A DNA stretch of 64,000 bases from a virus (Duplodnaviria; Caudoviricetes): positions 32,001 to 96,000 of the IMG/VR virus record IMGVR_UViG_3300011008_000004; one strand, given 5' to 3'. Below are positions 8,183 through 37,448 of the stretch, piece after piece. The position numbers were made by a program, and so were the translations under genes. Each line of letters begins with the position of its first letter. The first letter of the stretch is position 1. Below the pieces are notes generated by a model, which was given only the letters and a program-made list of their open reading frames with translations, ran no database searches and was not told the DNA's origin.

Positions 8183-8623
8183 TCAACCTCTAAGAATTTT
8201 ATTAACTAACCCAGCAATCTTACTCTTATCAAAAGAATTACCGACTTCTTTTATAGTTGCTCCTATAATCTTTCCTTGATTAGATTCTCCTGAATCTACA
8301 ATCTTTTTAATAATGGTGATAACTTCATCTTCAGACAATTCTTTAGGAAGATATTGAGACAACTCTTTTACTTGATTCTCTAAAACTATAAATTGTTCTT
8401 GTTCAGGTTTATAATAAGATTGAGTTTCCTTTAACTCTTTAATTATTTTAATAATTAAACCTTGAACTGCATCATCAGGAAGTTCTTTCATAGTTACAGG
8501 ATACTTACCTGATTTTTCTTCATTTATCATTCTTGCAACTACTTGTTCATAAGTAGCCTTTAATTCTTTATTTTGAGCTTTTCTTGCGTCTATAAATTTG
8601 TTTTTAATTTCTGTTGCTAACAT
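8183..8623 (-). CDS. GatB/YqeY domain protein
   Basis: N-terminal ARKA, LSQYLPKELSEDEV, GKIIG patterns; about 146 aa. Confidence 0.8.
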   Translation of the reverse strand: MLATEIKNKFIDARKAQNKELKATYEQVVARMINEEKSGKYPVTMKELPDDAVQGLIIKIIKELKETQSYYKPEQEQFIVLENQVKELSQYLPKELSEDEVITIIKKIVDSGESNQGKIIGATIKEVGNSFDKSKIAGLVNKILRG

Positions 8624-8624
8624 A

Positions 8625-9059
8625 TCACACCTCTATTATAATCTATATACAATACGTATGATATAACTTAGTTAGTTTACTATACTGCTTTTCACTAAAA
8701 TCTTTTTGTCCACGTCTATACTTTTCTAGTAAATTATGATAGCATATTGCTAAATATTCTGCATTATGTTCGTCATATTTAAGTGGTTCGTCATCTTCAT
8801 GAGTATAAACACCCGACATCAAAAAATTTGAAAAATAATTTCTATAATTATCCCAAGACTTTATAGAGATGCCCCTATTAACCATCTCTACTAAAACTTT
8901 ATTAGAGTAATAATATAAGTAATCTTTTGGATACTTATAAATATAGTTTATCAAAATATGTTTATCTTGTTTCTTAAAAATAGAATTTAATTCTCGCCAT
9001 TGTGCTAATAGCTGACTTTTAGGTAAATATGGAATTAAATCTATGTGCCATAATCTCAT
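8625..9059 (-). CDS. Pyrimidine-dimer DNA glycosylase / endonuclease V-like
   Basis: MRLWHIDLIPYLPKSQLLAQWRE N-terminus; ends at TAG 8643 in the standard code or TGA 8625 in code 15. Confidence 0.8.
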
Positions 9060-9212: not shown

Positions 9213-9488
9213 TTATTTTAATATTTTATCTATGCACTCTTGAATAAATGTGCAGTAGTCATCCCACTCTTCAATCGGTAATACGCCCATAGCTTGTTTT
9301 CTTAAAATAGATAATTCTTTAGACAGCGATATTTTTTCACGAATCAACTGTTCAATCTTTCTATCGTCATCAACTCTATCATTAAGTAACTTCATATCTT
9401 CACCTAAAGATATCAGTGAATCTATTGCGTCTATTTCTTGTGCATTAAATCCAAATCTATTTAATTTATTACGTAAAATTGATTTCAT
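9213..9488 (-). CDS. Hypothetical protein, possibly tail-fibre-associated chaperone
   Basis: LIREKISLSKELSILRK...W.DY..FI.EC pattern; starts 2 nt after the RT stop. Confidence 0.4.
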   Translation of the reverse strand: MKSILRNKLNRFGFNAQEIDAIDSLISLGEDMKLLNDRVDDDRKIEQLIREKISLSKELSILRKQAMGVLPIEEWDDYCTFIQECIDKILK

Positions 9489-9490
9489 AT

Positions 9491-10525
9491 TTACTATTCC
9501 TTAATTATTTTATATTTTAATAAACTATAATATAGCTCATTTAATAATTTTATTTTCTATAAATTATCTGCTCTTGCTAAATAAGTTCTATAGCAAGTAT
9601 AACTGGTTGTGAACTCATTAATAGACTACTTAAAAATCTTTTTCTTAAGTTTTCTTCGTAACTTTTTCAGATACTAAGTTGTAGCTATCTAATAAACTTT
9701 ACCTTTATCATTTAATAAAAATTTAAAACCTAAAAATGTGACTCCCTTATATAGATGTGTGTAACTTGTTTTATCTTTATTTATCTATAAATCAACATCA
9801 TTAAGTTGCTAAGCTATCTTATCTATGTATGTCTAAGGCGAGCTATTAACAATCAATATCATATCATCCATATATCTAATATAAAACTTAACCTTTAAAG
9901 TTTCTTTTATATAATGATCAAGTTTATCTAAATATATCAAACCTAAAATCTAAACCAGCTATGATCCTGCGTTATAACCTATAGCATTATCATTATCGTA
10001 AACTTTTAATATATCATGAACTTTTGAAAAATATTCATCTTGTAATTTCTGTTTAAACAATGCTTCGCTTCTATTATGTCTTATGTTATTATAATACTTT
10101 TTAACGTCTATATGAATTAAATAACCTTTATTATCTCTATAAATTTCATAATACTGCCTTAAAAATTTCTTTAGAGATTGTCTAGCATAATCTGTGCCTT
10201 TATGTTTCTAACAAGCACAATTATAAGTTATTAAAGATCTAGTCATTGTTGGATATATCACTAAATCATTTAATAGTCTCTAATATATTCTATCTCTAAA
10301 TGATATTGCAAGTACTTCTCGTTCTTTTGGATCATGTATTTTAAATTTTTTATGTTTACGCTCTACATATGTATTACTATTTATTTCAGAATATAACTTA
10401 TATGTTTCTTCTAATTGATTTAAAACGTAATGCTAAACTGTTTTCTTCCATTTTACACCGTGAGAACATTTATTGCAACTATCATACAAATTATTAAAAG
10501 TATAAATATTATTAATATCTTTCAT
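9491..10525 (-). CDS. DGR reverse transcriptase, 344 aa in code 15
   Basis: One frame with 13 in-frame TAG and no TAA/TGA until 9491. Motifs: PKERE, FRDRIY(Q)R, CAC(Q)KHKG, IDVKKYY, GYNAGS(Q)LV(Q), YIRYMDD, FLGF. Confidence 0.95.
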
Positions 10526-10692
10526 TGCAGATCAATAAGTATGTAACAATTATGTAACTAATCTTACGTGCAGAATTAATTATCTCACTATAAGACTAGT
10601 TACCTTGTTACACTTTGTTATTAAGAGAGTTAAGCTCCTTTTATGAAAACACAATATAACGTCACTATGTGATGTATCTTTTTATGCTCTAG

Positions 10693-10798
10693 TAAAATCG
10701 GAGAAACGCCATTACTATTGTATGCGTTGTTGTTGTTGAGGTTACCTGAAGTATTCAGATTCCACACATTGTTAGAATTACTACGATTAGGCGATCTA
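10693..10798 (-). repeat. DGR template repeat (TR)
   Basis: AAY-rich (AGA TCG CCT AAT CGT AGT AAT TCT AAC AAT GTG TGG AAT...GGC GTT TCT CCG); differs from 11306-11414 only at adenines plus one codon indel. Confidence 0.96.
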
Positions 10799-10831
10799 CA
10801 GCGACACTCTCTATATTAGACTATTCAAAAT

Positions 10832-11247
10832 TTAATTATTTTGAATACGCTTAATATCACTATTAATCCACTTTAATGGTGTTTCTTTGATATTTAAAAC
10901 ATGACCAACAACATATTCTACACGATTACTCTTAGATGAAAAGCTTTCATGGCAATGTCCCATATAGACAAGAAATCTATGCAATTTTGTATCGCTAATC
11001 TCTATAATCTATATCGTTCATCTTTATTTTTATCATCTAATTTAGTGTTATTCGCTTTCCATAAATTAGTATGAATATCTATTGCTAACTAATTCAATCT
11101 ATCAGTTATAGACGTTTGAAATATTGGCAAAAATATTCTCTAATTCTTTGTTATCTTTAAAATATAAATAGCGAATGACTATGATTCCATAAATAAGTCT
11201 AATGTATTATCACTATTTTTATTACGTTTCCAAGCAGGTACTGACAT
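10832..11247 (-). CDS. avd: DGR accessory protein (Avd-like four-helix bundle), code 15, apparent 1-nt frameshift near 10931
   Basis: MSVPAWKR...WKANN...ERYRL(Q)RLAIQNC...DIAMKAFHL, then KSNRVEY...KWINSDIKR in the adjacent frame; lies between VR and TR; 4 in-frame TAG before the shift. Confidence 0.75.
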
Positions 11248-11259
11248 ATCACCTCTTAA

Positions 11260-11283
11260 TGTAATGCAAATGGTTGCATTACA
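11260..11283 (-). promoter_or_regulatory. DGR cis-acting hairpin downstream of VR
   Basis: Perfect 10-bp stem TGTAATGCAA/TTGCATTACA with a 4-nt loop, about 13 nt after the target stop. Confidence 0.8.
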
Positions 11284-11296
11284 ATTAGTTAATTAT

Positions 11297-12940
11297 TTAA
11301 ATTGTAAAAAGCGGAGAAACGCCATAACTATAGTAAGCGCCGAAGTAGGTGCTGAGGGAACCTGAAGTAAGCAGACACCACACAAAGTGAGAACGACTAC
11401 GAGAAGGCGATCTAGTCCAAACATATTGATTAGACGTTTTAGCTGTAACTGACTACATTACACGATTACTATTTGCATCATTTTTTACAACACCACCATT
11501 TTTCCATAACCAATAATCTGTTACAGTGCCTTCATAGCTATTCACTGAACCCGCAAGTTCAGTGCCACTTGGTAGAGTAAATTGACAATATAATTTATTG
11601 TTAGGTAATTCATAGCCACTTCTATTATAAACGCCATAAGCTACATTATCTTCAATACAAGCCAAATCTTCTGATTTCCACCAGTCTTTAAAACCATGCT
11701 TATTTACGTATGAAGTAGCTAATACGTCGCCTACGTGAGAAGATGAAAACCAATCTAAACCAGAACCATTTAACCATTTATATAAATTACTATCTTCAAT
11801 TATATTTGAACCGTATCTCATTAGATTCATAGTTGAAGTGATACCTGAACCTGGAGCAAATGAGTGTTTAAATACGTATTTGCCCTCATTCGTATCTTCC
11901 CAAGTCTGTATACTATCACCAACTTGATAATCTTCACCTTTAGTTAAAGCCGTAAAACTTTGGTCACCTAAAACTTTATTAGTGCCATAATAGTAATATA
12001 AACTATCTTCAAATAATCCTGTCGCTTTTTCTTGTTCCCTTTCATCACACACTTTTGACACCAATGTGTAAGCTGACTGAATTAATGCACCAGTAAACGT
12101 AACATCTTCACCATCGACTTTTTTAATCATGTTGTCAGATACGTCTAAAACTCTAAACGGCATAGTGTAAGAAGTATTAGTATCTGGATCAGTTAATTCA
12201 CAGTCAAATGTAAATGAGTTGTTTTCATTACTTACTAACGCTTCTCTTTTCTACTCTAAAGTTATAGAATCTAAAGCTAAAAATTCTTTTACAGATTGAA
12301 TTGTCGTTATGCTAGATGTGTTATCATAAGTTACACTAACTGTAACATTGTCTGACAACGTACCCTACATATTGATCGCATGTGGATAAAAACAAACAAC
12401 ACTATCTAAAGTTATAGGTGAAGGACATACTACTTTATAAATCTAATTCAATGGTAGTGAGAAATTTATAGGCGCATTAGATGAAGTGCCTACAGCTATT
12501 TGATTATCATTATCATCTAAAATAGTAATGGTTACATCTGTTAATGGTGTTACTACTGAATCAATTAAAGTAGCTAATGACACAGAAAGTGTTCTCTTAG
12601 TTTCGCTTTTTACGTAATCTACAACAGCCTTACTAGTGGGCGTGTTATCATCTGTAGCGTTATCATCGATTTCTACATCAAATAGCTGTGTTGATGCATA
12701 CACTTTACCGCTCTATTCATATATTGTTTTAATATAGCATCCATCTAACCCAACTAAATCTACATTCAAATTGTTTATAGCTGCCTATCTATTTTGCGCT
12801 TCAACTGCACACACATTAATCATTGAACTATCGTCAGTTTTAATGTATAACTCACCTGTTTGCAAATTAACCACAGGTTGACCTATAGCTGAAGCATCAG
12901 CCGGTGTAGGTACACCTCTTTTTCTTCTAAGTTGTAACAT
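11297..12940 (-). CDS. DGR target protein (tail-fibre/receptor-binding, CLec-like C-terminus), 547 aa in code 15
   Basis: AGGAG RBS and ATG at 12940; joins track ORFs 12443-12703 and 11453-12163 through 6 TAG; ends VWTRSP...GVSPLFTI*. Confidence 0.9.
11306..11414 (-). repeat. DGR variable repeat (VR)
   Basis: About 23 substitutions versus TR, all at TR adenines; encodes the last ~38 aa of the target. Confidence 0.96.
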
Positions 12941-12973: not shown

Positions 12974-14131
12974 TTACGGTATTAATGCAAATTTTTTATA
13001 AAATACGTATACCTCTGTTGGACTAGTGTCAGCGTTAGCTGCGTTATTTATAGTTACAGTTATACTACTAGACGCAGTATACAAACTAAAGCTTGTGTCA
13101 AATCCTGTAGTACAAACCTACCAACCTTTTCTAGAACCAGCCATTGAACCATCATAGTTAGGAATTAGTATTACAGGTGATCCCATACTAATAAATCCTG
13201 GATAGCCGTTGTACCATTCTCCACCTGATAGACTCATACTAGCGTTGGAATATCCCGTATACTGATAAACTATTAAGCATTCTTTAAGTCCTAAACTTAT
13301 AGTCTATGTACGAGATGCACATTTAGTCAATGTGCCATTAGCGCCTATTAATGCGCAATATAATGCAGCACTAAAAGCATTAGATACTTGATACGGATAT
13401 GCCCAATTAGGCCAGTTCCAACCATAAGTGTCAGTAGCACCATTATATGTAAGATACGCTTCATTATCAGCTAATGGACCACTTTTAAGTAAGAAATATT
13501 TACGCCAAGTGTACGTACCTTTAGACGTGTTAGCTGCGATACATGAAAATAAATCACCAGTAGATGTATTGCGATATAACTAACCTACAGTTCCAACTGT
13601 AGAAGTTGTTGGATCAGACGTGCCATAAATCAACTAAGATTGTATCTCTGATGTAATAGTAGATTCTAAGTTAGATTTTAAACTATAAGCACCTCCTGCT
13701 GTGAAATATAAATTACTCTCAGATGTAGGCGTATTTGTCTATGCATAATTCGCTACATTAGCTAAACCAACATCAGATTTAGTGATTGTAATATCTGAAC
13801 TTAACGCATGATTATTCACTTTTAAAGCTTTATTAACCTTGTTTTCATCTAATGAATTTATAGATACTTGTAAAGAAGATTCTGCTTGTTTAGATCTATT
13901 TATCTCATTATTTAAGTTATTAGATAATGTAAGATTTAAACTATTTATAGCATTCTAACGGCCATTAGCTTCTATATCACTAACATTTTTAAAAGATGTA
14001 ACACGACCTTGATTATCTTCAGATGTAGCTATGTACAATTCACCTGTGTCTAATCTAACAGCCGGTTGTCCTACATGCGAGAAATCATTAACTGTAGGTA
14101 ACCTATCTTTAAATCTTTTTAATAAAATCAT
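12974..14131 (-). CDS. Tail-fibre-like protein, 385 aa in code 15 (absent from ORF track)
   Basis: Open frame with 6 TAG; N-terminus MILLKRFKDRLPT..VGQPAVRLDTGELYI; TKSDVGLANVAN motif. Confidence 0.8.
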
Positions 14132-14210
14132 AAATATTTACCTTTAAAAAATTTAATTTATGATTTTAACTAAAAAAAAAAACACGAAGACAAGTATGCA
14201 TATAAAATTA

Positions 14211-15305
14211 TCAATAATAGTTAGACCAGCAAAATATAGGTTTACCTTTAATGCTAGTTACTGATATATTCACATTACCTGTAGATACTAGTGAAAATGA
14301 AAGTGTATATGTACTAGATGACGTAGTTATTTTAATTGGTAAATCAGCTTCCCATAAACCTCCACCACCAGCGGCAGAAGCTCCGCCACTACAGTGCATC
14401 ATTAAATCAAAAGACAATCCGCTAGGTAACCAACTTGGTTTAGTATATGAATAAGTTTTAGTTGTAGTCTTATTGGCCGTTACAGATATGATACTACCAG
14501 TGCCTGCGGTCATAGCTATATTCAAATCTAACCAACAAAAACGTCCTTCTTTACGTAAAGAATGATTATCTATGCTTTTGGAGCCAGTAGCGCTGTCAAA
14601 TAGTTGCCAAATATCTACTGACTCCGAATTAAAACCCAAATTAGTTAACCTCGATTCTATAGAACCTTTAGTTGAATCATACCCAGATAACGCTGTCTAA
14701 TTAGCGCTATTTAATGAAAATGTGGTATCAGTCAATGATAAGCCAGTTCCAGCTATATATGTAGTATTAATCCAAGGAACAGTTACATAAGCTTTATTCT
14801 CTGCTCCAAGCTTAACAGCATAATGCTGAGCAGTCTCACTATAACCAATTTTAATACCACCTAGAGCTGTCACAGTCGCTGATGGTAAAGTATAAACAGT
14901 ATCTGTAAATTTTGCATCTGAAGGAACACTTTTAGATATAGTATAACTTATCTATTTTATAGAACCATCACTATCAACATACGTAGGCTATATGGTAGAA
15001 CCTATCATAGGATGTGATGAATAAGTCCCAACTTTTGATGCATAAGAAGAATTAGTTGATTTAAATGATGCGTATGTGCCATCAGTTATTTTAACAATTT
15101 CTGTATCTGTATAATTTTTAGCATTAGATTCCGCTGTATTAGCTCTAGTTATAGATAGTGAATCTACTACACTACAAACATTTTTAATGGTTGAATTATC
15201 TGTTTTAATGTATAATTCACCTGTATTCAAATTCACTATAGGCTGTCCTACATCACTAAAATCTGAAGAAGTAGGAACGCCTTTCTTTCGTCTAAATAAA
15301 ATCAT
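14211..15305 (-). CDS. Tail-fibre-like protein, 364 aa in code 15
   Basis: Joins track ORFs 14988-15305 and 14211-14639 through 3 TAG; VGQPIVNLNTGELYIKTD, YTLPSAT...LGGIKIG and YIAGTGLSL motifs. Confidence 0.8.
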
Positions 15306-36158: not shown

Positions 36159-37448
36159 TTAACATTCATGTATATGTATTCGCTCATGATGCTCATAATC
36201 AATACAAATTTTTCTTAAAATATTGCTATTATTATAATCTTTCCTTCTACACCAACATATATCTAACTAATCAGTATATAATAGCTAATGCGCAAATTCA
36301 TATAAATCTTTATTGCTAATTTCTTTTATATTTAATATTTTACAAAAAGATTTATAGTCTAATACATGTAAAATTAAACCTAAATTATGCATACTACTAC
36401 ATATTTCTTTGTATTTGTCAGCATCATAGCGCTATAAACTAGACTTTATCTCATAAAACTCATTATTTACTTTAAAATCAGGTAGATAAGAATATTTATT
36501 GCAATTAATTAAATTTATAGTTTCTGCTTCATATAAATAATCAATATTATTTAAATATAATGTGGCAGCTACCTTAAATTCTTCAAAACTTCTACAGTAT
36601 TTATGCAAACCTATATTTGGACATTTAAATTTTATACCATAAGAAGTAAGCTTAAATGTGCCGTCATATGCATATGCAGACTATCTTTCTGCTTGAAATT
36701 TACTTAATCTCTATCGTGCTTCAGGCGTTGAAGCAGGATTATTTTCGTGCCAGATTTGACGCTATAATTCACGAAGTTCTCTGCCTCTATCAGTGTCACT
36801 GTAAAATTTTTTCTTATTTTGTGATAAATTCTATTTATGCTTTTCTGTAAAAATATTCTTAACATTAACATCTAGATTGTAAGTCTTACAGTAATTTTCC
36901 CATGATATATTATGTGATCTTACAACATGATCTTTAATAGCTACACGATATTTACCACATATTTCACATTTAAATGGCTTATCAATATCATTTTCATCTT
37001 TATGTAATATAACATTGTGTTTCTATTTCAAATGTTTACAATATTCATTTTTATACTTAAACTCTTTTCCGCATATCTCACATCTGTAATAACCTATCTT
37101 TTTCTTAAGTTTAACAGATATAGGATATTCAGGATATTCTAATTTGTAATCGTTTATATCAACATAGCCATGTTGTTCACGTAAATGTCTAAGTAAAGAT
37201 ATCGCTTTTTTACCGCATATAGGACATATTACATATTCAGCATTGCGAGCTTGCTCATACTTATCTAATACATCTATGCATTCTTCATAGATATCTAAGT
37301 GATATTTATGAAGATGATGTTTTAAAGATTGCTGTGTAAAACTCTCTTTATAATGTTTACCGCATATAGGACATAGCTAATTGCCTACCTAATTCTTGCC
37401 TTCAAACTTTTTATAAATTAGATTGTATTTCTACTGAGTTGTTAACAT
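36159..37448 (-). CDS. C2H2 zinc-finger + PD-(D/E)xK endonuclease (putative homing endonuclease), 429 aa in code 15 (absent from ORF track)
   Basis: Open frame with 11 TAG; four CxxC...H...H fingers; RSFEE...YE...YLPDF...YEIK; GAGGT RBS. Confidence 0.85.

Follow-up and report, generated by a model that had tools for sequence, protein, structure and literature searches.

The window analysed here, a stretch of 64,000 nucleotides from a phage genome, carries on its minus strand what we judge, with a probability of about 0.8, to be a canonical BPP-1-type diversity-generating retroelement (DGR) in a phage that lies outside the crAss-like group and reads TAG as glutamine, and whose avd helper gene has suffered a 1-nt deletion that probably disables the cassette in this record. 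The BPP-1-type assignment had been made in an initial annotation of the same DNA, and it was borne out by the match of the reverse transcriptase (RT), the family of the Avd protein, the adenine-only mismatches between the template repeat (TR) and the variable repeat (VR), and the C-type-lectin-like tip predicted for the target protein.

Genome context and genetic code

The DGR is carried by the genome of a 214-kb gut tailed phage with 30% G+C. When TAG was read as a sense codon, the coverage by long open reading frames (ORFs) rose from 77% to 90% genome-wide, and in the block formed by the DGR and the fibre genes it rose from 0.31-0.37 to 0.77-0.96. Two tRNA(CUA) genes were located, at genome positions 2606-2680 and 163136-163233, both of which passed the Rfam tRNA model (60.7 and 54.2 bits) and have the acceptor stem U1-A72/G2-C71/G3-C70. 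They are presumably charged with glutamine, as judged by comparing this stem with the identity elements of E. coli tRNA-Gln. On this sequence evidence TAG is decoded as Gln by the phage's own tRNA(CUA) genes, with the result that standard decoding cannot yield RT, Avd or target at full length. The dependence of RT and Avd on amber suppression that had been proposed thus holds, the first TAG lying at codon 31 of the RT gene and at codon 23 of avd. As had also been foreseen, gene calling with the standard code missed RT and avd altogether and recovered the target in fragments only.

Of the 278 ORFs in the genome, 185 have no TAG, replication genes among them, and TAG is present in the fibre genes and in the gene for TerL (14 TAG). 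The TerL protein shares 36% identity with its counterpart in Bacillus phage vB_BceM-HSE3, and by this similarity a crAss-like affiliation of the phage was ruled out. A blastn search of GenBank phages with the 4-kb cassette gave no match. Sequence related to the phage was also found in one horse metagenome run.

Layout of the cassette

The order that had been read on the minus strand, namely target gene with VR at its 3' end, hairpin, avd-like gene, TR and RT, was recovered in the coordinates, and all features given below lie on that strand. Two tail-fibre paralogs, at 14211-15305 (3 TAG) and 12974-14131 (6 TAG), both with weak PHROG tail-fibre matches, stand upstream of the DGR target gene (11297-12940), which comprises 547 codons and contains 6 TAG, the number originally counted. 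At its 3' end lies VR (11307-11414), whose 108 nt make up the final 36 codons. The gap from the target stop to the avd start holds a hairpin (11260-11283), 23 nt beyond VR, with a 10-bp stem and a 4-nt loop (dG -9 kcal/mol, z -2.9); a search for its sequence in IMG/VR found nothing. The avd-like gene (10832-11247), which is interrupted according to both a frame map and the alignment with homologs, is followed by TR (10694-10798), a 105-nt element whose 35 A lie mostly in AAT and AAC codons. Next comes a non-coding spacer of 168 nt (10526-10693), without an ORF, up to the start of the RT gene; by its position it is the counterpart of the DGR RNA spacer of BPP-1, and a similar function could be suggested by analogy. 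The RT gene (9491-10525) has 344 codons with TAG read as Gln, encodes a YMDD motif and ends in a TAA stop at 9491-9493, and directly after it stands a TAG-free gene of 91 codons (9213-9488).

The reverse transcriptase and its amber codons

The RT matched Pfam RVT_1 (7e-11) and PHROG 1423 (1.7e-60), and its best match in the PDB was 8ub7_A (1.8e-20, residues 4-293), the RT chain of the BPP-1 structure in which chain B is Avd. The best group II intron RT followed far behind (2e-7), in keeping with the expectation that the protein would group with DGR RTs. We therefore regard it as a predicted DGR-type RT, a class assignment based on the PDB match and the motifs.

The RT gene contains 13 in-frame TAG and no in-frame TAA or TGA. 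In the two remaining frames there are 19-39 TAA, together with 12 and 12 TAG. The initial annotation had placed several of the 13 codons at conserved glutamines, in the contexts DRIY-Q, CAC-Q-K and GS-Q-LV-Q, and all three were found, with Gln in the homologs. Eight or nine of nine close homologs have Gln at columns 82, 106 and 189, and 79 of 79 relatives have it at column 192, the TAG that corresponds to the invariant Gln of the catalytic motif, against a background Gln frequency of 3.4%. The RT of the closest relative, L114, has Gln at 6 of the 13 TAG positions. At codon 189 this record has TAG, where three other runs have CAG. Among the ten strain variants in the RT, six are synonymous and a seventh is this TAG/CAG change, a pattern indicating purifying selection on the RT. 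Pseudogene decay was rejected as the cause of the TAGs, given the absence of in-frame TAA and TGA, the genome-wide recoding and the purifying-selection-like variants.

No other gene of 240 codons or more is as dense in TAG as the RT gene, in which TAG makes up 3.8% of codons and serves as 13 of the 19 Gln codons; in the remaining TAG-bearing genes the TAG share of Gln codons is 29% (binomial P 4e-4). One explanation, to which we give a little less than an even chance, is that this enrichment is a neutral by-product: in a genome of 30% G+C that suppresses TAG efficiently, CAG-to-TAG transitions would become fixed by drift in accessory genes that are late or weakly expressed, with the RT as the extreme case. 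The polymorphism at codon 189 points to ongoing interchange of TAG and CAG between strains, the in-frame TAGs of the RT are as frequent as those in the other two frames and hence are not avoided, and other accessory genes are also rich in TAG, including an HNH endonuclease gene and the gene at 36162-37448. Drift accounts less well for the large TAG-free fraction of the genome with its replication genes, which argues that some selection shapes the tolerance of TAG; such a partition by gene class is what a regulatory hypothesis predicts.

Template and variable repeats

TR and VR had been estimated to differ at about 23 positions, all of them TR adenines; there are exactly 23 substitutions, every one at an A, so that 23 of the 35 adenines of the 105-nt TR are affected, and the non-A positions of TR are identical in VR at 66 of the 66 sites tested (hypergeometric P 9.5e-15 for the restriction to adenines). 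Past activity of the cassette is clear from these 23 A-only changes and the lack of any other substitution. The genome has a single VR, a second one having been ruled out by a next-best non-A match of 23/41. At the 3' end of VR a conserved, relatively G+C-rich sequence, GGCGTTTCTCCG (11312-11323), appears IMH-like.

VR exceeds TR by 3 nt, an additional codon located where TR has its (AAC)4 run (10726-10737). L114 also has (AAC)4 in its TR, with a VR of the same length as the TR, and the extra VR residue is absent from nearly all homologs. The extra codon is best explained by slippage of the RT over the (AAC)4 repeats in a past round of homing; a transient (AAC)5 TR is a possible alternative source. 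As for metagenomic coverage of this region, the Logan contigs of three of the four runs do not cross VR, among them those of X1, whose gap at 11332-11395 lies inside it, and one X2 contig spanning VR has 44 differences over 831 nt, counted irrespective of their position relative to A. A search of metagenome contigs for the pattern of the TR and VR ends gave only chance matches of 19-24 nt. By analogy with the BPP-1 family, the avd-TR-RT transcript would be copied by RT and Avd into adenine-mutagenised cDNA, which in turn would replace VR.

The interrupted avd gene

The N-terminal 106 codons of avd lie at 10930-11247 and contain 4 TAG in the true frame, as many as first reported, while the C-terminal 32 codons (10835-10930, stop at 10832-10834) lie in the -1 frame. 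According to the frame map one base is missing at 10929/10930, and the gene is thereby split into two frames. The resulting pieces of 106 and 32 amino acids align end to end with ten homologs of 137-152 amino acids, and among 80 IMG/VR relatives fetched an avd-like gene stands just upstream of the RT in 38. Searches of Pfam, NCBIfam and PHROG with the window's own avd and target proteins found nothing, so that their families were drawn from homolog profiles and, in addition, a fold model. Alignment with hhalign against canonical Avds placed the protein in the Avd family, as had been claimed (96.5% probability, E 7.6e-10), and the canonical set itself matches the bAvd structures 4dwl and 8ub7_B at ~1e-11. 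The Pfam bAvd model gave weak matches for 4 of the 12 sequences of the avd alignment, and the profile of this Avd clade alone found no relative in the PDB.

The initial annotation had called the DGR complete. This holds for the layout, but the reading frame of avd is broken by the 1-nt deletion, and the cassette is thus complete in its layout without being intact. Loss of the base would leave an Avd bundle without its fourth and last helix, and without complementation the cassette can probably no longer make cDNA. We consider it unlikely, if by no means negligible, that the break is unreal or bypassed, through a consensus error, a minority allele or -1 slippage at CTA-AGA-G, and that the DGR is fully active. 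Such a reading would draw on the fact that a -1 shift at AGA yields exactly the protein of the relatives (..FHLR-SNRVEY..), on the purifying selection acting on the RT, and on the absence of non-A mismatches between TR and VR, which suggests that the last homing was recent and so argues against a disabled cassette. However, the deletion is common to two assemblies of the genome (JGI and ENA; 15x), although these probably derive from the same reads, no slippery heptamer of the form X XXY YYZ is seen at the site, and in the relatives the base is simply there, in frame. The extra base is present in related-strain contigs of runs X1 and X3. A programmed -1 frameshift is likewise unlikely, there being no slippery heptamer here and no frame change in the relatives. 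We keep to a real deletion and a cassette probably disabled in this record. Separately, a minority intact avd allele or complementation in trans could keep the DGR working.

The target gene and its fibre paralogs

The N-terminus of the target, a motif of ~40 amino acids, is common to both upstream fibre paralogs, and both belong to the same recoded late module as the target. Homologs of the target with 45-59% identity match Pfam DUF6273. An AlphaFold model of the target (pLDDT 82.9) was aligned by VIA-align with the N-terminal domain of 9qa6 at a Z of 13.2 and an rmsd of 2.3 A over 156 residues; this domain has been described as C-type lectin-like (PMC12237041), and nearly all of the lower-ranking matches, Lcl and TvpA among them, were C-type lectin-like domains as well. 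Foldseek with the same model returned the 9qa6 match only, the C-type-lectin signal needing VIA-align. The model thus predicts a C-type-lectin-like C-terminal domain of DUF6273 type that ends in VR, and the DGR would diversify the C-type-lectin-like tip of one tail-fibre paralog.

Recoding and control of the retroelement

All three DGR genes would be fully translated only while TAG is suppressed, and so would the other genes of the fibre and packaging module. The initial annotation had gone further and proposed that the code switch acts as a timer on hypermutation of the receptor-binding protein. In this model, which we find improbable, the cassette would be complete and active, and the TAGs of RT and avd would have been selected to delay or gate hypermutation until the suppressor tRNA is made. 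The early position of the first TAGs in RT and avd fits it, as do the top rank of the RT in TAG density with 13 of 19 Gln codons affected and the distribution of TAG, which spares replication genes and not TerL or the fibre genes, in line with the late-gene hypothesis (10.1101/2021.08.26.457843). Against it, avd is frameshifted in this very genome. Since the target, the neighbouring fibre and other late genes and TerL all need suppression as well, no timer specific to the DGR is required, and since the closest cassette, that of L114, is devoid of TAG, such gating is dispensable for the DGR of relatives. The DGR may be no more than one part of a recoded late module, in line with the hypothesis of Borges et al. 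(10.1101/2021.08.26.457843). The "timer" extends that published hypothesis in a way that is not specific to DGRs, and as a claim about DGRs it is overstated.

More doubtful still, in our view, is the idea that the dependence of decoding on suppression has been turned by selection into a gate or throttle on a mutagenic RT, one which, as the VR insertion would then show, can make length variants. Most doubtful is a limit on dose rather than timing, in which 13 successive suppressions would keep the mutagenic RT very scarce: the RT is indeed the outlier in TAG density and incomplete suppression would be expected to multiply over 13 sites, yet TerL, a protein required in large amounts, carries 14 TAG.

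If gating were real after all, the switch of genetic code would be a regulatory input to targeted hypermutation, and if the one-codon insertion in VR was made by the RT, this enzyme creates length variants besides substitutions. An RT gene with 13 TAG, together with strains that differ by TAG or CAG at one codon, offers a natural test bed for asking whether recoding tolerates or regulates accessory genes. The frameshift in avd and the length mismatch of VR and TR also make plain that even a perfect adenine-only mismatch pattern is no proof of a cassette that still works. DGR finders that use the standard code miss the cassette entirely, and surveys of the gut virome will therefore under-count DGRs in recoded non-Crassvirales phages unless translation table 15 is applied.

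Relation to known systems

The gene order is that of the BPP-1 DGR (mtd-avd-TR-brt), with VR at the very 3' terminus of a fibre gene, and the likeness extends to the C-type-lectin-like tip, the adenine-only mismatches, the hairpin after VR and the Avd helper. Unlike BPP-1, all three genes here contain sense TAG codons, the RT motif is AGSQLVQ (GxxxVQ) rather than IGxxxSQ, as in the whole clade to which it belongs, Avd is a divergent form of 138 amino acids whose gene is frameshifted, and VR is one codon longer than TR. Nearer to hand are the cassettes of L002-L011 and L114, from IMG/VR and ENA metagenome contigs, which have the same layout of target (with a DUF6273-type tip), Avd, TR and RT, and Avds of 137-152 amino acids that start with MSVP. 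L114, the closest of them, shares with the present cassette the 91-aa gene after the RT and the (AAC)4 run in TR. These cassettes, however, use the standard code and have no in-frame TAG, and identity of the RT to theirs is only 36-50%, with 50% for L114.

The recoded gut phages of Borges et al., on which the late-gene hypothesis of stop-codon recoding was built, likewise have low G+C, a suppressor tRNA, a concentration of TAG in structural or late genes and TAG-free replication genes; their report does not mention DGRs or reverse transcriptases (10.1101/2021.08.26.457843). Amber-suppressed DGR RT genes with in-frame TAG have been described in Zeta crAss-like phages, where the DGRs lie in the structural block of phages with tRNA(CUA) and act on fibre targets with C-terminal C-type lectin domains, and the authors of that work pointed out that recoding makes DGRs hard to find (PMC12386605). 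Of the view that the present element was hidden by recoding, the part that stands is that standard-code calls miss it; the phenomenon itself is not new. The phage studied here differs from the Zeta phages in its lineage (TerL, 214 kb), in the presence of avd, which only two Zeta genomes have, and in that its RT is the most TAG-dense large gene of the genome. DGRs combined with amber recoding are thus already on record; the present case lies in a phage outside the crAss-like group and adds to known biology without altering it.

Organisation of the cassette and its target

The initial annotation had described a complete diversity-generating retroelement (DGR), and we could place every element of that layout, all on the minus strand, although the avd-like gene proved not to be intact, its frame being broken by a 1-nt deletion. 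The tail-fibre target gene (11297-12940; 547 codons) ends in the variable repeat (VR, 11307-11414), which makes up its last 36 codons. The VR is followed by a hairpin (11260-11283; 10-bp stem, 4-nt loop, dG -9 kcal/mol, z -2.9), the gene resembling avd (accessory variability determinant; 138 codons starting at 11247, split between two frames), the 105-nt template repeat (TR, 10694-10798), a 168-nt spacer and the reverse transcriptase (RT) gene (10525 to 9491; 344 codons). With TAG read as Gln, we counted 13 TAG codons in the RT, six in the target and four in avd, the same as had been reported.

The RT stop is adjoined by a TAG-free gene of 91 codons (9213-9488, minus strand); this 91-aa gene of unknown function also directly follows the RT in the closest relative (ENA metagenome contig L114, 5814-6089), and could belong to the cassette family as an additional accessory gene. 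The genes immediately past the cassette (8183-9059) bear Pfam Pyr_excise (denV-like; one TAG) and YqeY domains in the precomputed annotation of an identical contig. Upstream of the target, two minus-strand genes (12974-14131 and 14211-15305) carry its N-terminus of ~40 residues and have weak tail-fibre matches.

Homologs of the C-terminal 333 residues of the target (45-59% identity) occur in proteins of 326 to 1287 aa and match Pfam DUF6273. An AlphaFold model of residues 330-547 (pLDDT 82.9) superposed on the N-terminal domain of 9qa6, a Thomasclavelia ramosa IgA peptidase (Z 13.2, 2.3 A, 156 residues), called C-type lectin-like by its depositors (PMC12237041), and the remaining structural matches were almost all C-type lectin-like domains, Lcl and TvpA among them.

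Differences between TR and VR

As the initial annotation had noticed for about 23 positions, TR and VR differ at TR adenines only: all 23 substitutions fall on A, of which the 105-nt TR has 35; for this the chance with random placement is 9.5e-15 (hypergeometric), and the 66 non-A positions tested are all unchanged. The TR adenines lie mostly within AAT/AAC codons, the usual DGR design. Since genome-wide the next-best place matches at only 23/41, we conclude that there is a single VR.

The VR also exceeds the TR by 3 nt, which had been missed; at this site (AAC)4 in the TR is opposed by five VR codons, AGC ACC TAC TTC GGC. Because L114 also has (AAC)4 in its TR with VR and TR of equal length, and because the extra residue is missing from nearly all homologous target proteins, the insertion lies in this VR. 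Since mutation has removed the repetitive character of the VR, the simplest explanation would be that the RT slipped on the AAC run while making cDNA; if so, slippage on (AAC)4 has made a VR length variant.

The TR core (10724-10788) draws many unrelated contigs from three sequencing runs, at a depth of up to 24-52 and with loose ends on both sides; they differ from the TR at 10756 and 10758. The implication is that this core would be shared by other DGRs of the same gut communities. An 861-nt contig from one run (X2) joins 9720 in the RT to 11022 in avd, skipping 1301 nt including the TR; its short side is only 30 nt, and the skipped stretch is present in other contigs of X2. It may represent a deletion variant, or else be chimeric.

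The RT and its amber codons

Whether the RT groups with DGR RTs had been set out as a test, and by its sequence matches it does: the solved structure that matches it best is the RT chain of PDB 8ub7 (1.8e-20, residues 4-293), whose chain B is Avd, versus 2e-7 or worse for group II intron, retron and Cas-fused RTs. It also matches PHROG 1423 (1.7e-60) and Pfam RVT_1 (7e-11), and carries the GxxxVQ signature of its clade (AGSQLVQ), whose final Gln is kept in 79/79 relatives. Among 256 RT relatives in IMG/VR, the target-avd-TR-RT order recurs in the nine closest (36-41% identity), and it is also seen in L114 (7 kb; RT 50% identity).

Pseudogene decay as the source of the RT TAGs is ruled out by the absence of TAA and TGA from the frame, against 19-39 TAA in its other frames; moreover, 6/10 strain variants are synonymous, which points to purifying selection on the RT. 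The predicted alignment of TAGs with Gln was borne out at columns 82, 106 and 189 (Gln in 8-9 of 9 close homologs) and 192 (79/79), against a background Gln frequency of 3.4%. The L114 RT has Gln at six of the 13 TAG positions, and codon 189, TAG here, reads CAG in contigs of three further sequencing runs, each belonging to a different study. In-frame TAG is absent from all related cassettes examined; therefore, the TAGs arose once the cassette resided in a recoding genome.

That genome (IMG/VR; 214,257 bp, 29.7% G+C, direct terminal repeats), of which the window covers bases 32001-96000, has almost all its genes on the minus strand. Treating TAG as sense raised long-ORF coverage from 77% to 90% genome-wide, and from 0.31-0.37 to 0.77-0.96 at 8-16 kb of the window, which includes the DGR. 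There is a tRNA cluster, and two tRNA genes have the anticodon CUA, none of these tRNAs being in the window: one of 75 nt (genome 2606-2680) and one of 98 nt (genome 163136-163233; 54 bits), both passing the Rfam tRNA model. Both acceptor stems have U1-A72, G2-C71 and G3-C70, pairs that match identity elements of E. coli tRNA-Gln; the 98-nt tRNA has an extra stem-loop of ~23 nt, and its acceptor stem is Gln-like (UGGGGUG...CACCCCAGCCA).

TAG occurs in 93/278 ORFs (280 TAG versus 1736 CAA/CAG). The DNA ligase, SbcC-like nuclease, DNA polymerase and NAMPT genes are TAG-free, and TerL (14 TAG), the fibre genes, an HNH endonuclease and several large proteins of unknown function are TAG-rich. Besides the RT, the most TAG-dense genes include an HNH endonuclease (genome 108169-109065) and a gene of 429 codons, 11 of them TAG (window 36162-37448), and TAG may perhaps be placed preferentially in mobile or accessory genes.

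A frameshifted avd

Codons 1-106 of avd (11247-10930, with all four TAGs) lie in one frame and the last 32 (10930-10835) in the -1 frame, and ten homologs of 137-152 aa align with the two pieces from end to end; at the junction, ..FHLR|SNRVEY.. stands against ..FHLESRRVRY.. in a related cassette (L008). Profile comparison with 22 canonical Avds from other DGR loci (hhalign 96.5% probability, E 7.6e-10), a set which itself matches the bAvd structures 4dwl and 8ub7_B at ~1e-11, identifies this family by sequence as divergent Avd.

The deletion is common to two other assemblies of this genome, JGI 3300011005 and ENA ERZ3810914 (15x coverage for the ENA assembly), probably built from the same reads; over 8.6 kb their sole difference from the window is an intergenic T-run at 14181-14182 (11 vs 9). 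No slippery heptamer was found at the frame break. In BPP-1, cDNA synthesis requires Avd; by analogy, with avd broken here, this population probably carries an inactive cassette. Contigs of two other runs (X1 and X3) have one extra base behind plus-strand position 10929 that restores the frame, and the DGR may still work through a minority avd allele or complementation by an intact relative.

Dependence on amber suppression

Under the standard code, translation would terminate at codon 31 in the RT and at codon 23 in Avd; therefore both depend on suppression for their full length, as had been claimed. The further proposal, that the code switch acts as a timer on hypermutation, is an idea that carries the published late-gene hypothesis for recoding (10.1101/2021.08.26.457843) over to a DGR, an element on which that preprint is silent. 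A DGR-specific gate is not required, because suppression is needed equally by the target and by the late module as a whole. Neutral drift from CAG to TAG in genes that tolerate it explains the data at least as well as a timer. The RT TAGs may still have a regulatory or throttling role, since the RT is an outlier: among genes of 240 codons or more its TAG density is the highest (3.8%), and TAG accounts for 13 of 19 Gln codons, where the share is 29% across other TAG-bearing genes (binomial P 4e-4).

Comparison with known systems

We found no nucleotide match to this phage among GenBank phages, and rejected a crAss-like affiliation on TerL similarity (36% identity to TerL of Bacillus phage vB_BceM-HSE3). 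DGRs combined with amber recoding are already known from Zeta crAss-like phages, in which 18/43 genomes carry DGRs, seven RT genes show amber suppression, and recoding makes the DGRs hard to find (PMC12386605, 2025). The present phage shares with them an amber-suppressed DGR RT gene but is not crAss-like; it is thus a further case, to which it adds a frameshift in avd and a VR lengthened by one codon.
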